Shown here piece by piece: positions 5,048-46,147 of a stretch of 64,000 nucleotides of DNA. Numbering within the stretch: position 1 is the first letter of the stretch; each line of letters starts with the position of its first letter. The DNA comes from Octopus vulgaris (taxonomy: Eukaryota). Under the pieces are notes generated by a model, which did no database searches, had not been told where the DNA came from, and saw nothing but the letters and a program-made list of their open reading frames with translations. The translations under genes were made by a program, and so were the position numbers. The stretch is from assembly GCA_951406725.2 (NCBI GenBank), contig OX597818.1, forward strand, positions 97,712,001-97,776,000. Reading direction: 5' to 3'.

Positions 5048-5280
5048 AAGGCGGCGAGCTGGCAGAATCGTTAGCACGCCGGGCGAAATGCTTAGCGGTA
5101 TTTCGTCTGCCGTTACGTTCTGAGTTCAAATTCCGCCGAGGTCGACTTTGCCTTTCATCCTTTCGGGGTCGATAAATTAAGAACCAGTTTCGCACTGGGG
5201 TCGATGTAATCAACTTAATCCGTTTGTCTGTCCTTGTTTGTCCCCTCTGTGTTTAGCCCCTTGTGGGTAGTAAAGAAATA
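5048..5280 (+). mobile_element. tRNA-derived SINE family B, full length
   Basis: A-box tggcagaatcgttag, B-box gagttcaaattc, central gcctttcatcctttcggggtcgataaa (Meta-domain-like); many copies in the window. Confidence 0.9.
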
Positions 5281-5464
5281 ATGTATGTATGTATGTATGT
5301 ATTCACACGCGCGCGAACACAGACACACACGCACTCGCACACATTATCTATTAATATGGTAACGTATGGTAACGAGTAAATGACATTAGGGTACTGTTAC
5401 TTTGGCAGTAAGGTTTCAATTATATGAATGGTTGTGATGCCATTTGTATTGGAGAGAGAGAGCG

Positions 5465-5503
<39 letters not shown>

Positions 5504-6413
5504 GATAGATAGATAGAGAGGAGTTAATGTTTGTGGTGTCATTATACTTGGATAACGCTCGAAGATATTGGTGTCAATGGTGCCATTGGTATTAGGGGGG
5601 GGGGAGGGGAAGGTAAACACATTGTTTCCGGGATCAAATGTAGCGACGGAGCAGCGTGGCTAAAATGGTTAAAAGATGCTAACGGCAGTTGTGATAGTAG
5701 TGATGAAATTCTTATGAGTTGGGAGTTATGAAGGAGTAGCTGGCTTAACTGCTGATTGTGAAAACACGGGGGAATAGGTTTAAAAAGGACAATAAAAAGT
5801 AAAGAAACTAACAAAAGAACAGAAATAAGGAAAAGAATGAAAGATTGAAGAACTAGAAGGAAAACAAGGCGACTAATAAAAATAAGAGTTCATCCCGTAA
5901 TTTTTGCCTCTATATCACCTTCTGTCACCAACCCGTTAGATGTAGTATCATGCTTATTCTTTGCTAACACGTGACTGAATGATTTTTGGTATGACCAGAA
6001 ATCAAATTATGGTGACACCGCTCGCCACACAGATTAGACTTACATTTTGTTTTTGTATATTACGCCGACATAAATGCGACTTCTGTTAGAACTCGAATTT
6101 AAGCTGATCTTCAGTAGTTTTCTTTTTGGCGTATAACAAAACAAAAACAATCTTTAGTTATGACCTTCCAAATAATTATTGCCTCTTCCAACAAAATTCC
6201 CGAATGCTTACAATAAATTGCGATGTTTTAATTAAATTTATGAGAAAATTAATTAAAATCAAAAAGAAGTTTAAGTAAAACTATCCATTTGTAAATCTAG
6301 TTTCTGTTATTGCTGCTTACTATTAAATATGAACCAGTATAAACATAGTTTATGAGTGGTATCTACGAAGTAAATTCATTGCAGGGTATGTTATTTAATA
6401 CTAAGTTCACTGT

Positions 6414-6931
6414 GGAGACGCAATGGCCCTGTGGTTAAGGCAGTGGAGTCGCAATCGTTGGATCGCGGTTTCGATTCCCAGACCGAGCGTTGTGAGCGTT
6501 TATTGAGCGAAAACACCTAAAGCTCCACAAGGCACTGGCAGTGGGTGGTGGTGAAACCTGCTGTGCACTTTCACTCACTTTTTCTTCCTGCGCAGTGGAC
6601 TCGCAGTCGTAGGATCGCGGTTTCGATTCCCAGACCAGGCGTTATGAGTGTTTATTGAGCGAAAACACATAAAGCTCCACAAGGCACCGGCAGTGGGTGG
6701 TGGTGAAACCTGCTGTACACTTTCACTCACTCTTTCTTCCTGTTTCTGTTGTACCTGTATTTCAAAGGGCCAGCTTGTCACACTCAGTGTCACGCTGAAT
6801 CTCTCCGAGAACTACCTTAAGAGTACACGTGTCTGTGGAGTGCTCAGTCACTTGCACGTTAATTTCACGAGCAGGCTGTTCCATTGAAGGATCAACTGGA
6901 ACCCTCGTCATCGTAACCGACCGAGTGCCAC
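6414..6931 (+). mobile_element. SINE family C (tail type 1) with tandem partial duplication of its 5' half
   Basis: ggagacgcaatggccc.gtggtta head, ggtttcgattccc B-box present twice; matches 41756 and 61866. Confidence 0.9.
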
Positions 6932-7357: not shown

Positions 7358-8173
7358 TCAGACGTGTCCGAGCCAGCGCAGTCGTCTCCGCACAAGGAGG
7401 GCATGCATGCTTGGCATATTAGTCTGTTCTAGGATGACTCCGTTTGGTACTCGGTCCTTCCAGGAGATGCCAAGGATTCGTCGAAGACACCGCATGTGGA
7501 AGCCGCTGAGGCGGCATTCTTGCCGGGTGTATGTTGTCCAGCTCTCGCTGCCGTAGAGTAGGGTGCTCAGCACGCAGGCTCGGTACACTGCGATCTTGGT
7601 GGTTATTGTGAGCATGTTGTTTTCCCACACTCTCCCGAAGAGCTTAGCCATGGCAGCAGCATCCTTCCCAATCCGTCTGTTCAGCTCCGGCTCGAGGGAC
7701 AGGCTGCTGGAGACCGTCGATCCCAGGTAAGTGAACTCGTTCACCACCTGCAAGCTGTGGTCGCCGACACTGATGCTGGGGACCCCTCCGACGCCCTGGC
7801 CCATGATCTCTGTCTTTTTCAGGCCGATGGTAAGGCCGAACTCTTGGCAGGCATCCGCCAGGGAGCTGACCAGCCTCTGGAGACCCGGCTGGTTGTGTGA
7901 TGTTAGGGCGGCATCGTCAGCAAAGAGGATCTCTCTGATCAGCACCTGACGGACTTTGGTCTTAGCTCTGAGGCGCGCAAGATTGAACAATCCACCATCA
8001 GCCCTGGTGTGGAGGAACACTCCGTCGTCGGACGTTCTGAAGGCATAGGACAGGACAAGGGAGAAGAAAATTCCGAAGAGCGTCGGCGCCAGAACGCAAC
8101 CCTGTTTCACTCCACTCTGGATGGGGAACGACTCCGAGGGCGATCCGTCAAACTGCAGTTCCCTGCATACCAT
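7358..8173 (-). CDS. RTE ORF part 2: RT core and thumb
   Basis: GVKQGCVLAPTLF, LFADD, FTYLG, LLYGSESW, LRWLGHV. Confidence 0.92.
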   Translation of the reverse strand: MVCRELQFDGSPSESFPIQSGVKQGCVLAPTLFGIFFSLVLSYAFRTSDDGVFLHTRADGGLFNLARLRAKTKVRQVLIREILFADDAALTSHNQPGLQRLVSSLADACQEFGLTIGLKKTEIMGQGVGGVPSISVGDHSLQVVNEFTYLGSTVSSSLSLEPELNRRIGKDAAAMAKLFGRVWENNMLTITTKIAVYRACVLSTLLYGSESWTTYTRQECRLSGFHMRCLRRILGISWKDRVPNGVILEQTNMPSMHALLVRRRLRWLGHV

Positions 8174-10226
8174 CGTGAAAGGAGGTGATGAGTTTCAGCA
8201 GTCTGGGAGGGCAACCTATCCTACCCAGGAGCGCAAACAGCCCCTCCCTGCTGACTGAGTCGAACGCCTTAGCCAGGTCGATGAAGGCCACGTATAGGGG
8301 CTGTCTCTGTTCTCGACTCTTTTCTTGAAGCTGCCTGAGTGAGATCATGTCGATTGTAGACCTCTCTGCCCTAAAGCCAGACTGAGACTCGGGGTACACA
8401 CGCTCTGCAAGCATTTGCAACCTCTTCAGGACCACCCTGGCAAATGCCTTACCGACAGTGCTGAGCAGTGATATGCCCCTGTAATTATTACAGTCGCTTC
8501 TGTCCCCTTTGTTTTTATACAGTGTGATGATGTTTGCGTCACGCATATCCTTAGGGACAGAGCCCTCCTCCCAGCACTGACAGAGCAGCTCGTGGAGATG
8601 GACCAGAAGGGCTGGCTTCCCGCACTGGATGACTTCTGCGGGGATGCCGTCTTGCCCTGGTGCCTTGCCCCGAGCGAGTGAGTCAATTGCTTTGCTCAGT
8701 TCTTCCTTTGTTGGAGGCAGGTCAAGCTCCTCCATGACAGGCAGAGCAGGAATGCCGGCGAGGGCAGACCTGGTGACCACATTCTCAGTGGAGTAGAGGT
8801 CCTGGTAATGCTCGACCCACCTCTCCATCTGCTTCGCTTGGTCCTTGATGACCTCGCCATCCCTGGACTTCAGTGGAGCAACCTTGCTGACAGTGGGCCC
8901 GAATGCTTTCTTCATCCCCTCGTACATCCCTTTCACGTTACCACTGTCAGCACAGCACTGGATGTTCTGGCATAAGTTCTGCCAGTAGATGTTGGTGCAA
9001 CGTCTGGCCGTCCTCTGGACGTCGCTTCTGGCTGTTCTCAGAGTAGCCAGGTTCTTTTCTGATGGGTCGCGCTTATAGTTGACCAGTGCTTCCCTCTTGG
9101 CAGCAATGACAGGCTCCATCTCAAGCAGGTGAGCTTCAAACCAGTCTTGATTTCTCCGCTCCCTCTTTCCTAGGGATGACATGGCTATTCTGCAAGTGGT
9201 GTCGCGAATAAGCTGCCATCTCTCCTCGATGGACGTGGCTGCGTGATCTTTAAGGGCCTCCTCCATGCGGTTGGTGAATTCTGAGCGGAGGTCGGGGTTG
9301 GTTGTCCTGGCGGTGTTGATGCGTGGGCGGCTTTTCCCTACGGGACGGCGGATTTTCTTTGAGGCCAATCGGACCCTGCTGCACACCAGAGAGTGGTCTG
9401 TATCACAGTCAGCACCATGGTAGCTGCGTGTGAGAAGCACACTGCCGAGGTGGGCTCGCCGGGTGATGACCATGTCCAGTTGGTGCCAGTGTCCGGACCT
9501 TGGGTGCCTCCATGAGACCTGGTGTTGTGGCTTAGCCATGAAGAATGTGTTGGTAACGCAGAGTTTCCGGTAAGAGCAAAGCTCCAACAGTCTCTGGCCA
9601 TTCTCATTCATCTTCCCCACGCCAAAGCGTCCAAGGCAATCTGGCCATGCCCCATGATCGGATCCCACCCTTGCGTTGAAGTCGCCCAGAAGGAAGATGG
9701 GCTCCGACCCTGGTATCTGGCTGATGGTGGCGTCGAGCTCCTCATAGAACCGGTCTTTTATTTCCTGAGGAGAGTGGAGTGTTGGGGCATAAGCACTAAT
9801 TATGTTTACCTTCCCCGTTGATGTTGCAAGGCCAAGAGTGAGGATGCGCTCTGAGCCATTTGAAGGAGGGATCGCCATGGGGAGCAAGCTGTTCCTCACG
9901 GCAAACCCCACGCCATGCTGGCGGACCTCCTCGACGGGTCTCCCCTGCCAGTAGAAGGTGTAGTCCTCCCGTAGCATGCCGTCTGCGGCGAGCCTGGTCT
10001 CTTGCAGCGCCGCTATGTCGATGTTCAGCCTTTTCAATTCGGTGTTGATGACTACTGTCTTCCTACTGTCGTTCATCTGTCGTAGATCGTCAATGATGCC
10101 AGGGCACATGGTCCTGACATTCCAGGTGGCCAGTCGCAAGACTGGTGACTGGGTATTTGTTTTTCCTTTGTTTGCTGGTGCAGGGTTTTCAGTCTGCTTT
10201 TCAGATTTTGTCCTAGCTCCAAGCAC
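8148..10226 (-). CDS. RTE ORF part 1: APE endonuclease and N-terminal RT
   Basis: LATWNVRT, IAALQETR, LGDFNARVG, DTDHSLV, KAPGQDG, NYRGISLL, QSGFR, FIDLAKAFDSV; frameshift near 8160. Confidence 0.92.
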   Translation of the reverse strand: MLGARTKSEKQTENPAPANKGKTNTQSPVLRLATWNVRTMCPGIIDDLRQMNDSRKTVVINTELKRLNIDIAALQETRLAADGMLREDYTFYWQGRPVEEVRQHGVGFAVRNSLLPMAIPPSNGSERILTLGLATSTGKVNIISAYAPTLHSPQEIKDRFYEELDATISQIPGSEPIFLLGDFNARVGSDHGAWPDCLGRFGVGKMNENGQRLLELCSYRKLCVTNTFFMAKPQHQVSWRHPRSGHWHQLDMVITRRAHLGSVLLTRSYHGADCDTDHSLVCSRVRLASKKIRRPVGKSRPRINTARTTNPDLRSEFTNRMEEALKDHAATSIEERWQLIRDTTCRIAMSSLGKRERRNQDWFEAHLLEMEPVIAAKREALVNYKRDPSEKNLATLRTARSDVQRTARRCTNIYWQNLCQNIQCCADSGNVKGMYEGMKKAFGPTVSKVAPLKSRDGEVIKDQAKQMERWVEHYQDLYSTENVVTRSALAGIPALPVMEELDLPPTKEELSKAIDSLARGKAPGQDGIPAEVIQCGKPALLVHLHELLCQCWEEGSVPKDMRDANIITLYKNKGDRSDCNNYRGISLLSTVGKAFARVVLKRLQMLAERVYPESQSGFRAERSTIDMISLRQLQEKSREQRQPLYVAFIDLAKAFDSVSREGLFALLGRIGCPPRLLKLITSFHDGMQGTAV

Positions 10227-10435
10227 CCATTGAAGCGGGCAGTCTGTGGAGGGTCAGCACCATTATTGGCCGGGGGCTGCCCAGCTTAAGGCGGGCGGTA
10301 GCTGAACCAGTTATTAATAATTATATATAATTATGCCAGTTATTAATAATTATATATATATACTTATCCTTGAGTTCTATCTTCCTGTTAGTATTAGAAA
10401 ACACACACACACACACACATTGCATACGCTGGAAG

Positions 10436-17010: not shown

Positions 17011-18447
17011 TGTTAAAAACTACTTTTGTTTCTAATCTTCTTGAGATCATTAGCGAATTTTAGGACGTCGTGTGAACATATAAGACCATGCTTTAAACCA
17101 ATGGGGAAATCATAAATACCTAGGGACAGGACTAAGCTATGCTAGTGTACATTTTTATACCATTAACCTTTGTCGTCTGCTATAGGTAGTCTTCGTATCT
17201 ATGTCTTGAAACTTCCTCTCCAGAGCGCAGGCCTGAGCAAGTGTGTGTGTGTGTGTCAGTGTGTGCATAATACCAGCAGTTGTTCATATATGCAAGTCTT
17301 CCTTCTCTTCGCTACTGATTTTGCTTTGAGACCGATACAATTTGGGCCTTTTTGATGCAGAGAACCAGAGCATAACACTGAAAGCATCTAGTCCGATGCT
17401 CCACCAATTCCGCCTGTTCATCAGTAATTATAGTACTTATTTTATTAGGCTTGATGAGATGACTAAGATAACTACATGTGTTGATCGAATAGATTATACT
17501 TCACAAATGAATTATTAATTATTAATTATTAATTATGGTGTTGCTTTTGTCGTTCAAGGGAAAATGATACGAACCATAGGGATATATTATATAAGATATT
17601 ATACAATATGCTTATACTATACCGTTCACTTTTCAATGTTTCCAACAGCAATTAACAACCTAAATCAACTTCTTTTATCTTACAGATCTTAAAGTACGGC
17701 AATAATTTTATAGCAAAGCAATCATCCAGGTTCACATGATGAATCTATTTTTAACATAGACAAAACGTCTTAAATTTAGAGGAAGTATATAGTCGGGTTC
17801 ATTGACCTCAGTATTTCGCAGGTACTTTATTTGATGTATCGTGAAAGGCAGAATTGACCAGGGTAATATATACTGACTTCAGAAGTATTTGAAATAGAAG
17901 CGTAGAATTTTTTTTTTCTACAATGAGCACAAGCCTTGAAATTTGGGATGGCGTGGGGAGGACCAGTCGACTACATTAACCCCAGTGCTCAGATGATATC
18001 TATTTTATCGACCCCAAAAAGATGAGATGCAAAGTCAACCTAAGCGGTTTTTGAACTTAGAACATTCAACTTAGGCGCAAAATTATATTTATAGATAAAA
18101 CTATAAAGAAGACAATCGTGTAAAATTACGCCTACGTTCTGGACAGTGGCACAGTGATACTGGTTGCCCAATAGATATGATTCTAACAATTTCTTTTATT
18201 TTTTAATCAGAGGGAAGGTAATGCTCATGACCTGGTACAAGGCCTCTAAGCCTGATGCTAGTGAGAGGAAATAAGGAAGGTATCCTCAAATCAGAAACCG
18301 GACCCGAATATTTGCAACATAGAAGACACCACTAAAGGCAATGAAATTGCCAGGTGGTAGTGTTAACCGGACGATGGTTGAAATCTGCCACTAAAGTTGG
18401 CCTTGGCGTGTTTTGAACTCAGAACGCAGAAAGCTCGAGCAAATGCT

Positions 18448-18857
18448 TATTTCTTTACTACCCACAAGGGGCTACACACAGAGAGGACAAACAAGGACAG
18501 ACAAACGGATTAAGTCGATTTTATCGACCCCGGTGCGTAACTGGTACTTATTTAATTGACCCCGAAAGGATGAAAGGCAAAGTCGACCTTGGCGGAATTT
18601 GAACTCAGAACGTAGCGGCAGGCGAAATACCTATTTCTTTACTACACACAAGGGGCTACACACAGAGAGGACAAACAAGGACAGACAAACGGATTAAGTC
18701 GATTATATCGACCCCAGTGCGTAACTGGTACTTATTTAATCGACCCCGAAAGGATGAAAGGCAAAGTCGACCTCTGCGGAATTTGAACTCAGAACGTAAC
18801 GGCAGACGAAATACCGCTAAGCGTTTCGCCCGGCGTGCTAGCTTTTCTGCCAGCTCG
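18448..18857 (-). mobile_element. Dimeric SINE family B
   Basis: Full monomer followed by a second monomer starting at ggtatttcg; agctcgagcaaat(g/a)ct repeated at both ends. Confidence 0.9.
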
Positions 18858-27610: not shown

Positions 27611-27700
27611 TCTCGTTTCCGATCGTCGGCGGCGGGCGGCTGCTTCCCGAGCTTCCGCCGCCGCCGCGCGCTTCGTTCTCTCGAAACGTAACGTCGGTGA
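27611..27700 (+). other. GC-rich probable 5' ETS remnant
   Basis: Sharp GC/CpG-rich island directly abutting the 18S 5' end. Confidence 0.65.
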
Positions 27701-27830
27701 TACCTGGTTGATCCTGCCAGTAGTCATATGCTTGTCTCAAAGCTTAAGCCATGCAAGTGTAAGTTCATGCCGTAAACGAATGGTGAAACCGCGAATGGCT
27801 CAGGAACCGGACCTAATCCTCGGGACCGTA
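27701..27830 (+). rRNA. 18S rRNA: 18S rRNA 5' fragment (orphan pseudogene)
   Basis: tacctggttgatcctgccagtagtcatatgcttgtctcaaag.ttaagccatgca...gtgaaaccgcgaatggctca; truncated after about 130 nt. Confidence 0.95.
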
Positions 27831-28216
27831 TTCTTCGATAGCATGTTAGACAACACGTGGAACTAATAAGTTTAAGTTAGAAATAATTTTTTTTATTATA
27901 TTTTGTTAAATATTTTCAGGATCGGATTATGAAGTTTCCGATGTCAAGAACGTAGATTTTCCTAGAAATTATAATTAATTCATTGAATGAACTTACTAAA
28001 TTGCAAAGCCGTTCAATAGAAACTGTGAAACATTTGAGCATAAAAGAAATAATTGAGTGAACAATTTAAAAAGAAAAGAAAGTGTAACTATGAAAACCAG
28101 AATAATGGGGGTGGGATTTTCAAGAATTTTAAAGCCCAATGTCATGCATACGTAGTAACACTATAGAAACAATAGGGGGAAAAAAAAAAGAAACTCTTAT
28201 CATACTGGATAAAAGA

Positions 28217-42541: not shown

Positions 42542-42965
42542 CACACACATATACACACATATATGTGTGTGCATATACATGCATATAAGCATAAATATTA
42601 TATACATGTATGTGTGTGTGTGTATGTATATATTTATACATATATACAAACGTACACATACATTTACCTAGATATGTGCCTGGGTCGATGTGTGACGTTA
42701 TTTTACAAGCAAACATTCGTAAGAATATATGCACACACGAAAATACGTAAATTCTCTTAACTTCTTCATTACAGGTTCCTTTCTTAAATTGTGTATTTAG
42801 TAGTTCATTTATTTATTTAATTAATTCTCTTTTAGGTTTGTAACCCAATCAATTTAGCAAGTCAACAAATAATAAGATTTTGTCAACTCTGCAAAAACTA
42901 CGAAAGAAATTTAGCGACTGAGAAAATGAAAAAACAACTCAACCAATGTATTAGCTGATATACAA

Positions 42966-43262
42966 GGGCAGCGAGCTGGCAGAATCGTTAGCATGCCGGG
43001 CGAAATGCTTAGCGATATTTCGTCTGTCGATAAGTTCAGAGTTCAAATTCTGCCGAAGTCGACTTCGCCTTTCATCCTTTCGGGGTCGATAAATTAAGTA
43101 CCAGTTACGCACTGAGGTCGATATAATCGACTTAATCCGTTTGTCTGTCCTTGTTTGTCCTCTCTGTGTTTAGCCCCTTGTGTGTAGTAAAGAAATAGGC
43201 ATTTCGTCTGCCGTTACGTTCTGAGTTGAAATTCCGCCGAGGTCGACTTTGCCTTTCATCTT
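42966..43262 (+). mobile_element. Dimeric SINE family B, second monomer truncated
   Basis: Same junction as the 18448-18857 dimer. Confidence 0.88.
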
Positions 43263-43324
43263 TTCAAAATTTGGCACAAGGCCAGCAATTTCGGGTGGAG
43301 GGGGTAGGGGTAAATCGATTAGAT

Positions 43325-43762
43325 TATCTATCTATCTATCTATCTCGCTCTCTCTCTCCAATACAAATGGCATCACAACCATTCATATAATTGAAACCTT
43401 ACTGCCAAAGTAACAGTACCCTAATGTCATTTACTCGTTACCATACGTTACCATATTAATAGATAATGTGTGCGAGTGCGTGTGTGTCTGTGTTCGCGCG
43501 CGTGTGAATACATACATACATACATACATTATTTCTTTACTACCCACAAGGGGCTAAACACAGAGGGGACAAACAAGGACAGACAAACGGATTAAGTTGA
43601 TTACATCGACCCCAGTGCGAAACTGGTTCTTAATTTATCGACCCCGAAAGGATGAAAGGCAAAGTCGACCTCGGCGGAATTTGAACTCAGAACGTAAAGG
43701 CAGACGAAATACCGCTAAACATTTCGCCCGGCGTGCTAACGATTCTGCCAGCTCGCCGCCTT
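43325..43762 (-). repeat. Inverted copy of 5048-5485 (SINE B plus unique flank)
   Basis: Near-identical; I count two substitutions and one 1-bp indel. Confidence 0.95.
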
Positions 43763-46147
43763 GCTGGTAAGATGTTCTGGTGGCGTTATTAACTCTATAT
43801 GGCAGTTAAAGGAGATACATATAGTTTCTAGATTTCAGTGTGCTTAAAGAAGAAAATCAAATTATTTTTTCATTACTGAACAGCGGTACGTCTATCATAG
43901 AGCACAAATGTATGCAGCACAATATTACAGGCTTCTATCTTTCTATAACTAAAACACTTGACAGCAAATTCTTTACTTTTGCTTACAATATCGTACCAAT
44001 TAGTTAAACGGATTGTATGATCATTATTAATGCAAGGAAATAACAAAAAGCAAAAAAAAAAAAAAATGCATTTCTCGATCATTCCGTAGGATTCCACGAT
44101 AGGACGAAATATGCGAAGTTATCGGAATTTATATTCTGGATCTTCTGCAGAAAATATTTCCTATCTTATGAAACGGTTTATACAGATACGATGTTCTTAT
44201 AGTCTCCTGTAATATGAACAGCCACGAACCAGAATTATTCTGAGAAATAGGCTTAAGAATCATAGCTTGGACTGACCTTGGCAGTGTTAATTTTCTGGAT
44301 ATTTAAATTTAGAGACAAACAAATTCAGCAATAAAACCAATAAAAGATTATTTTATATAAAATTTCAAATTATGCCTCCACCCTCAACTGTTTTAAAAAG
44401 TTTAATTTTCAACATTAAGTAAACATATAACCTCCTTATTTCCAAACAAAACTGCTTTCAATTATGCTTCACATTATAATAACGAAAGACTTTGTAATAG
44501 TAAATTTTTCAGGTAAACCACTAAACACGATTCCAACCAGTGTTCTCAAGTGTAAAAGCAGAAACATTTATAGCAAACATTTTGACATTAATGAAGCAGC
44601 TTCTAAAACGCAGAAGAAACTGTTTGAATCTAATTAACTATTTTCTCCAAGTGATATTACTGCTTTTGATCAAATGATACATCAGCCTTGGTTTTCACTA
44701 TGAACTCTAGAAGTTAAAGTCTAGAGTGCTCTAGATCGATTCCTACAGCACATCTCCCCAGTTCAAACTGCCTCATTGAGATATAAACCTTCAGTTCATA
44801 GAATACAGAAGGACCATCAGATTCTTACTGCTAAAAAATCGTAAAGAGTCACGTTAAAGAAAATATGCTTCTCTTTGGAATTGGTAAACGAAATTAATCT
44901 GGTGCAGCTGGTCATGTGCAATCTCTTTTAGGGTTAGGGTTATCTTTTTTTCTTCACAAATGTAAATAAACCCAATCTGTTTCTTAAACGAGGGACATAT
45001 TCATACGGCACAGAATGCTTTTTAACTCAATGGACGTCACTGGTTGAAATTGCAGAAATTGAAGAAAAAAAAAACAACAACAAATATCTTACAAACTATA
45101 GAATTTTCTCAATAAAGCCAAGAGAAAAAGATGTTTTATAAACACATTCTACCAGTATACGAAGTTTAACAATTTTTAGTTACCTAGAAATTATGTTAAG
45201 AACTGCCGTTCAAACCGAAAAGATCCCTATCAACTTATAAGCAGGACAACGAGCCTATCTCTCCCACTTCCGCAACCCGCTATTCTATATTTGTGATGAC
45301 CGAAGTTGTGCATATCGCAAATAAGGAAAAGACAGCAGCATGGAGAAATCATTGACTGTCGTAATTTTCTCGCCTGTAAATTAAACACCTTTTCCTTTCC
45401 TTGACAACCATATAAGGTAAACAGCAATTGACACACGAATGAAGTGAATTTTATATACATGATAGATATTATTAGCACTTAAGGCAAACATTTAGATGAC
45501 ACATGACAAGTATTTTTGTCACGCAAGATAAACATTATCGTTATGCGGGCAAAGCATTATAGTGCCGTAAGGCTATAAAAAACTTCTTTTACGTTTTAAT
45601 ATGCTTGTTGTTGAAGTTGTTATTGTTGATGTTGTTATTATTATTATTGTTGATGTTTTATTCCTCTCTTTTCACGCTTGTGTTACAATAAAACGAACGT
45701 TATTGCCACATAAATCGAATATTACAGTCAAATAATCCGCACTTTATTGTCACCTCAGTGAAATAAAGGTCAAATTGCATTTAAAACGTAGATTGACGTC
45801 ACATTTCACAGTTATTATATCAAACCTGTCAGGGTAGTTGTGTACAGGAAGGGATCGATACAAAATCGCAAAAACGCCCTTGTACATTGCGGTGTTTTGT
45901 TAAAATCCTTAACATGGTGGGTTCAAATCTTGTCTATGTTAGCTTTGTATTTTACTCTTTAGCGATCGATAAAATAATTACTAATTAAGCACTGCAGTCA
46001 ATTCAATTTGATTGTATCTTTCTACAAATTATCTAAGGAGTGGCAGAAGATAATATAAATAATTGGACTCTACTTCGTTATTGAGTACTTTTCATCTCCC
46101 TCCCTCCCTCCCCCTCTCTCTCTATATATGTGCACGCTTACATACAT

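Follow-up and report, generated by a model that had tools for sequence, protein, structure and literature searches.

The 438 bases at positions 43325-43762 of the window (the whole stretch of 64,000 nucleotides that was analysed) are probably a one-off, DNA-templated repair copy of the segment at 5048-5485, begun in a SINE that was resident at 43.7 kb. The duplication is real and young, and it carries no sign of function; the copy touches none of the genes found in the window.

The duplicated segment, its donor and the SINE family

In a self-BLAST of the 64-kb window, positions 5048-5485 of the plus strand matched positions 43762-43325 of the minus strand at 436 of 438 bases (99.5%), with two mismatches and no gaps, and this pair was the best non-self match. 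The duplicated segment consists of a 234-base SINE and 204 bases of its 3' flank, and the copy lies inverted 38 kb from the donor. The match extends from SINE position 1 through five GATA units, where it stops. The initial annotation had described both the near-identity of the two segments and the limits of homology, at the SINE 5' end and inside (GATA)n, and its coordinates proved exact. The mismatches between the copies are located at 5091/43719 and 5112/43698, which are element positions 44 and 65. Both fall within the first 65 of the 438 bases (chance 0.022, computed after the fact), and past SINE position 65 there were no differences between donor and copy in 373 bases.

The SINE variants 135A, 143T and 165A, which had been pointed out as private to the two segments, do depart from the majority of the 93 A-tailed copies found in 864 kb around the window; the donor departs from the A majority at these positions and at the polymorphic position 21. 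When the 2.8-Gb genome was searched with the 151-base core of the flank, ignoring simple repeats, two full-length matches were obtained, the donor and the copy, and the four other matches reached only the first 39-40 bases of the core. This search had been proposed as the test to discriminate between transduction and repair, and the finding of two copies only favours templated repair. The flank had also been suspected of belonging to a longer SINE subfamily; with only two full-length matches, it does not. No match to the SINE or to the copied flank was found with Rfam or ARAGORN, and no description of the 5048/43.3-kb locus or of cephalopod SINE transduction was found in the literature searched.

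The donor SINE (5048..5281, plus strand) has a tRNA-like head and an A-type tail and is embedded in a (TATG)n array. Its head presumably contains an A-box-like motif at element positions 13-23 and a B-box-like motif at 75-87. The copied 3' flank (5282..5485, plus strand) comprises (TATG)5, approximately 150 bases of two-copy DNA, (GA)n and the first five units of (GATA)n, and the remainder of the donor (GATA)n array (5486..5517, plus strand) is absent from the copy. Because (TATG)n flanks the donor SINE on both sides, with a 24-base match between the sides, the SINE must have inserted at 5048, and this is where SINE and flank became joined. The GATA array of the donor is continuous to 5517, whereas the copy has neither (TATG)n upstream nor further GATA. 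Judged by these repeats, 5048 is the original and the inverted copy at 43325-43762 is the derived one, since (TATG)n on both sides and a continuing GATA array occur at the donor only.

Several other features were observed in the window. On the minus strand, 7358-10253 is occupied by a non-LTR retrotransposon reading frame that is split in two and encodes endonuclease (PF03372) and reverse transcriptase (RT, PF00078) domains; it appears RTE-like. A full-length 5S rRNA match was found at 1692-1810 on the plus strand (81 bits, E 1e-15). A frame at approximately 27700-27860 on the minus strand resembles the translated 5' end of 18S rRNA, and it scored under the Rfam gathering score. At 6440-6742, another interspersed repeat is present as two tandem units of 152 bases.

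The donor SINE gave 260 matches in the 864 kb around the window, of which 93 had an A-type tail, 41 a B-type tail and 26 a C-type tail, and 100 were left unsorted. The A-, B- and C-tailed copies share approximately 165 bases, so that a common head and middle are followed by three tails. Most A copies are 90-96% identical to the donor and are young, and B copies are old, with 69-86% identity in 23 of the 29 aligned relatives of the stub described below. The donor SINE may carry a sequence like the Meta domain of MetaSINEs. The MetaSINE superfamily is described as a tRNA head followed by a 66-base Meta domain and variable tails (PMC4824008).

Target-site duplications (TSDs) of at least 8 bases were found in 13 of 23 A monomers compared to 3 of 506 mismatched pairs; the 23 monomers were those with a non-repetitive upstream flank, and 4 of them are really composites. 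The possibility that the donor SINE family makes no TSDs was thereby ruled out. In the 864-kb region, TSDs of 11-19 bases at A-type SINEs often start with GGTA, several two-unit A composites have a TSD that encloses both units (offset 181-189), and a second entry point was observed at element position 17. Self-insertions were frequent, as 22 of 46 full-headed A copies continue directly into a second unit from position 50. A tandem A-type SINE array with a period of 184, in which later units begin at position 50, lies at 18393-18857 on the minus strand. The stretch G000:C3:100000001-100400000 was SINE-poor: its 400 kb gave 18 matches, as against 106 for a 400-kb stretch of C17 and 247 for the 864 kb of C5.

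The acceptor site and its earlier state

Read along the minus strand, the copy begins with a SINE head (43698..43762, element positions 1-65) that contains both non-donor bases, at 43719 and 43698, and was likely retained from the resident element. The switch to the donor likely falls in the interval that follows (43629..43697, element positions 66-134), between the last non-donor base at 43698 and the first private donor variant at 43628. The donor-derived SINE body and A-type tail (43529..43628) carry the private variants at 43628, 43620 and 43598, and the 204-base copied flank (43325..43528) is identical to 5282-5485. The adjoining stub (43263..43324, also on the minus strand) is the 3' end of a B-type SINE from approximately element position 158, as the initial annotation had recognised. 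Upstream of the acceptor head, the flank at 43763..43960 (plus strand) is single-copy, with one genome match.

At the 43325/43324 joint, the GATA end meets the stub with 0-2 shared bases. A 5-base palindrome spans this joint; it was found after the fact, 0.6% of simulated joints have one, and it is left unexplained by DNA repair. No TSD of the copy was found within 650 bases, in agreement with its reported absence, and the resident's own TSD was not found either. The sequence after the copy is ATCT, compared to GGTA, GAAA or TA-repeats after other monomers. A snap-back insertion of the C in ATCT is unneeded, since ATCT occurs at the same place in 7 of 21 B copies. Copying of the stub itself from elsewhere was also rejected, as no identical match was found among the 40 scored of 281 candidates.

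A second joint was found at 43262-43265. Here an opposite-strand A-type SINE with a second unit cut at approximately 117-122 (42967..43265, plus strand) breaks off and meets the B-type end, tail to tail, over a 4-base match. No TSD was found for this element, and the lack of TSDs in both SINEs that meet at 43262-43265 would fit a deletion in the middle of an inverted pair. The opposite-strand SINE also makes a close inverted pair with the copy, and a close inverted SINE pair with signs of a second loss at 43.3 kb would make a fragile site. Among SINE pairs 30-500 bases apart, 11 were inverted compared to 45 direct, the direct count being inflated by tandem units.

Contigs of four runs (X2, X4, X18 and X19) were aligned to 42850-44150, the alignment taking in 76% of X18. 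The tables of contig joints and loose ends were left unused because they were swamped by SINE contigs, and uncovered parts prove nothing. Common flank variants were carried by X18, X4 and X19 and were absent from X2 and the window. Contig 8 of X18 (43739-44037) contains the unique flank together with 24 bases of SINE head, with 4 differences from the window in 299 bases; contig 1 of X18 has three substitutions and one gap in 139 bases, so that over both contigs the haplotype differs at 8 of 438. At this rate, 6.8 differences would be expected in the 373 bases where donor and copy have none (Poisson P 0.001; 0.007 when 4/299 is taken as the rate). From this deficit, the copy likely arose after the haplotypes had split, although gene conversion could hide its age.

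The flank contig had a depth of 39.5 in X18, where its single-copy neighbours had 37.6 and 46.8, and of 33.2 in X4, where the neighbour had 41.2; both values correspond to one copy. Double depth occurred in no run, so the comparison is made without a positive control, and X2, which has the window-like alleles, gave no contig on the flank. Because the head is present in a diverged haplotype, the flank there has single-copy depth and the copy is young, a SINE head at 43762 likely preceded the doubling of the flank, the pre-event allele being seen at its two outer edges only.

The repair model of the initial annotation had drawn on the stub of a B-type 3' end. An old B head at the copy does not fit: over positions 5-65, each of the 17 B heads has 11-23 differences from the donor, and the copy has 2. 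A heads have 2-14 differences there, 4 of 46 having just two. Both mismatched bases in the copy's head are non-majority bases, and they were found together in three other copies. They are not diagnostic, and they were ruled out as a mark of the B subfamily, as their carriers are two A-tailed copies and one C-tailed copy. A match to the donor over positions 3-24, as the X18 head seems to show, occurs in only 4 of 44 A heads and in none of 16 B heads. Young heads do occur in composites that end in a B- or C-type tail (e.g. 315788, 365069 and 193516), and none of 17 B-tailed monomers had a young head; two full-headed B-tailed copies have 7-8 mismatches. Since an old B head is excluded, the stub is B-type and such composites occur, the simplest candidate for the resident is a composite of a young head and a B-type last unit, of which approximately 210-280 bases were likely replaced or lost. 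Apart from the kind of resident, repair through SINE homology, as originally modelled, agrees with the two-copy count and the lack of a TSD.

Templated repair and rival explanations

At the resident SINE, which adjoined the SINE at 42967 in tail-to-tail orientation, a break or a stalled fork within the element or just behind it would have left a free end with the resident head, and this end could have paired with the 97%-alike donor head 38 kb away. After a switch to the donor between element positions 66 and 134, synthesis would have passed through the donor tail and the 204 bases of flank, with 300-370 bases copied, before falling off in (GATA)n. With no homology left, the end would have been joined near-bluntly to the B-type stub, at the cost of the middle of the resident. 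The locus does not discriminate between a replication template switch and strand invasion followed by end-joining. The locus shows a gain in copy number with an intact template nearby, as the two copies are 38 kb apart and the donor is whole. The chance of a random landing within 38 kb is 3e-5, a value that counts only together with the absence of distant daughters because a 64-kb window shows near pairs only.

When the genome was searched with a 46-mer containing all three private donor variants, two exact matches were found, the donor and the copy, compared to 2,418 matches for a control 40-mer of the common head. Because the private 46-mer occurs only at these two places, there is no other intact daughter of the donor in the assembly, and the designation of 5048 as a source element is not supported. 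No T4 run was found in 5048-5485. Its lack in the copied flank had been reported correctly, yet it is no more than expected by chance, as 33% of random 204-mers of the region are also without T4. Since the first T4 past the donor is at 5901, 416 bases beyond the copied end, a read-through transcript should terminate approximately 416 bases further on than the copy does. No GATA for priming was found at the target, where the joint shares 0-2 bases.

The same chimera would be obtained if a read-through transcript of the donor had been reverse-transcribed at a break in the resident and the cDNA had ended by pairing with the resident head, with the middle deleted. Such an RNA template is considered unlikely. 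The copy takes in the SINE from its first base, read-through is possible because no T4 follows the donor before 5901, and the LINE at 7358-10253 places endonuclease and RT domains in the window. The seamless self-insertions in 22 of 46 full-headed A copies point in the same direction, and the joint palindrome resembles the complementarity of tail and target at the self-insertions of the family. However, the donor has no other daughter, the copy has no TSD and no GGTA or GAAA start, its end lies 416 bases before the first T4, and the joint shares only 0-2 bases. Moreover, we know of no reason for a trans-acting RNA to land 38 kb from its source. If the template was RNA, the locus would show local RNA-templated repair guided by a SINE flank. 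It is very unlikely that read-through SINE RNA near its gene was the repair template and that its new (GAUA)n end picked the site via ATCTA of the resident SINE; the (GAUA)n-ATCTA pairing, an equally improbable part of the same reading, would parallel the normal tail of the family, which is complementary to the usual landing site. If this were true, SINE flanks would reprogram where the partner LINE machinery inserts.

Canonical 3' transduction from 5048 by target-primed reverse transcription, accompanied by a target deletion and two later mutations, is extremely improbable. The start of the copy at the SINE 5' end, the position of the copied DNA 3' of the element and the lack of a terminator inside it would agree with such an event. 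Against this stand the two-copy count, the missing TSD and the presence of the SINE head in a diverged haplotype with a single-copy flank. In addition, no distant TSD enclosing unique flank held up among 11 TSD-poor copies inspected. None of the three marks of 3' transduction (a TSD, dispersed daughters, and an end at the transcript end or at a priming match) was found at the copy. The first model of the initial annotation, Pol III read-through with transduction primed at GATA, is thus not supported: there are no other daughters, no TSD and no target GATA, and the end is not at a terminator.

The chance of an assembly artefact is likewise very slight. No read or contig was seen across the 43325 joint and X2 has no cover on the flank, but there are two differences between the copies, the joints are precise to the base, the window is free of N inside a 147.5-Mb contig, and the two outer flanks, each with its SINE head, are also present in independent runs. 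Staggered-break inversions are marked by inverted duplicates at the two ends of a segment, and no host gene with exons across the segment ends was found by which to test order; nevertheless, the two copies are most improbable as the ends of a 38-kb inversion, which would require that a GATA array was split and rejoined by chance to another GATA array, whereas the donor array is continuous, and that the stub was native to the donor flank, whereas a SINE head was already at 43762.

Frequency of such events and comparison with known systems

Among 371 SINE matches in 1.66 Mb of three chromosomes, four pairs share the SINE together with other sequence, and three of them are SINE tails or tandem units. 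The 5048/43762 pair is the sole SINE-plus-unique-flank pair in the 1.66 Mb, with none in the 1.6 Mb outside the window. The earlier statement that SINEs are moving unique DNA locally describes one real event; as a general process it met with no second case in the other 1.6 Mb.

Short near-identical inverted pairs without the donor-type SINE occur at 0.1-3 kb spacing, as they do in humans (PMC4617611). Those at G000:C5:97938333-97939313, 97797922-97798954 and 97554694-97555670 are 99.5-100% identical over 122-423 bases, lie 0.1-0.7 kb apart and are not at this SINE. Most of the other near-identical pairs in this part of the chromosome can be put down to transposon copies, tandem units or fold-backs, and a tandem array of approximately 843-base units with 99.6-99.9% identity was observed at G000:C5:97856812-97860438.

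Events of 3' transduction by L1 and SVA carry a tail and a TSD and go back to source elements that have produced several daughters (PMC9311842, PMC12350158); the passages cited describe the process for L1 and SVA and not for Pol III SINEs. The 43.3-kb copy resembles such events in that an element and its 3' flank are found at a second place. In contrast, no tail, TSD or multiple daughters were seen for it. Class 2 templated sequence insertions (PMC5110952) are likewise patches a few hundred bases in length that lack a TSD and poly(A). They come, however, from distant loci with no long homology, and the review favours RNA templates for them.

The 1000 Genomes classes 'Inverted Dup' and 'Ins with Dup and Del' (Sudmant et al. 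2015, PMC4617611) are described as inverted events shorter than 1 kb that copy a template close by, lose sequence at the target and are not typically linked to retrotransposition. The 43.3-kb copy shares the size below 1 kb, the inversion, the nearby template and the loss at the target. Nearly all of the human cases fall within 5 kb, compared to 38 kb here, and SINE homology may explain this distance. In non-canonical termination of gene conversion (Hartlerode et al. 2016, PMC5104497), an end that has invaded by homology copies beyond it, and the event is completed through end-joining that uses microhomology or adds bases. The octopus locus likewise has its second joint outside homology, with 0-2 shared bases; that study concerns a sister-chromatid donor in a reporter with tracts >1 kb, whereas an ectopic repeat and 300-370 bases are involved here.

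A close likeness in kind is found in Alu/Alu-mediated insertional duplication (PMC13041450), in which unique DNA was copied 24 kb away in one example with a chimeric SINE joint and was read as template switching. As in that example, unique DNA was inserted tens of kilobases from its origin. The head of the copy may mark a chimeric-SINE joint: both mismatches lie in the first 65 bases and none after, and a head is present on the diverged haplotype, although the variants are not diagnostic. Unlike the Alu/Alu case, only one joint here would be a SINE chimera and the other is near-blunt in a microsatellite, and the element is an invertebrate tRNA-type SINE with no gene affected. The kind of event is thus already known from Alu-mediated insertional duplication and aborted gene conversion, and the 43.3-kb copy would be a clean, young invertebrate example of a repeat-guided repair scar that mimics SINE 3' transduction, which calls for caution when source elements are called from an element plus its flank.
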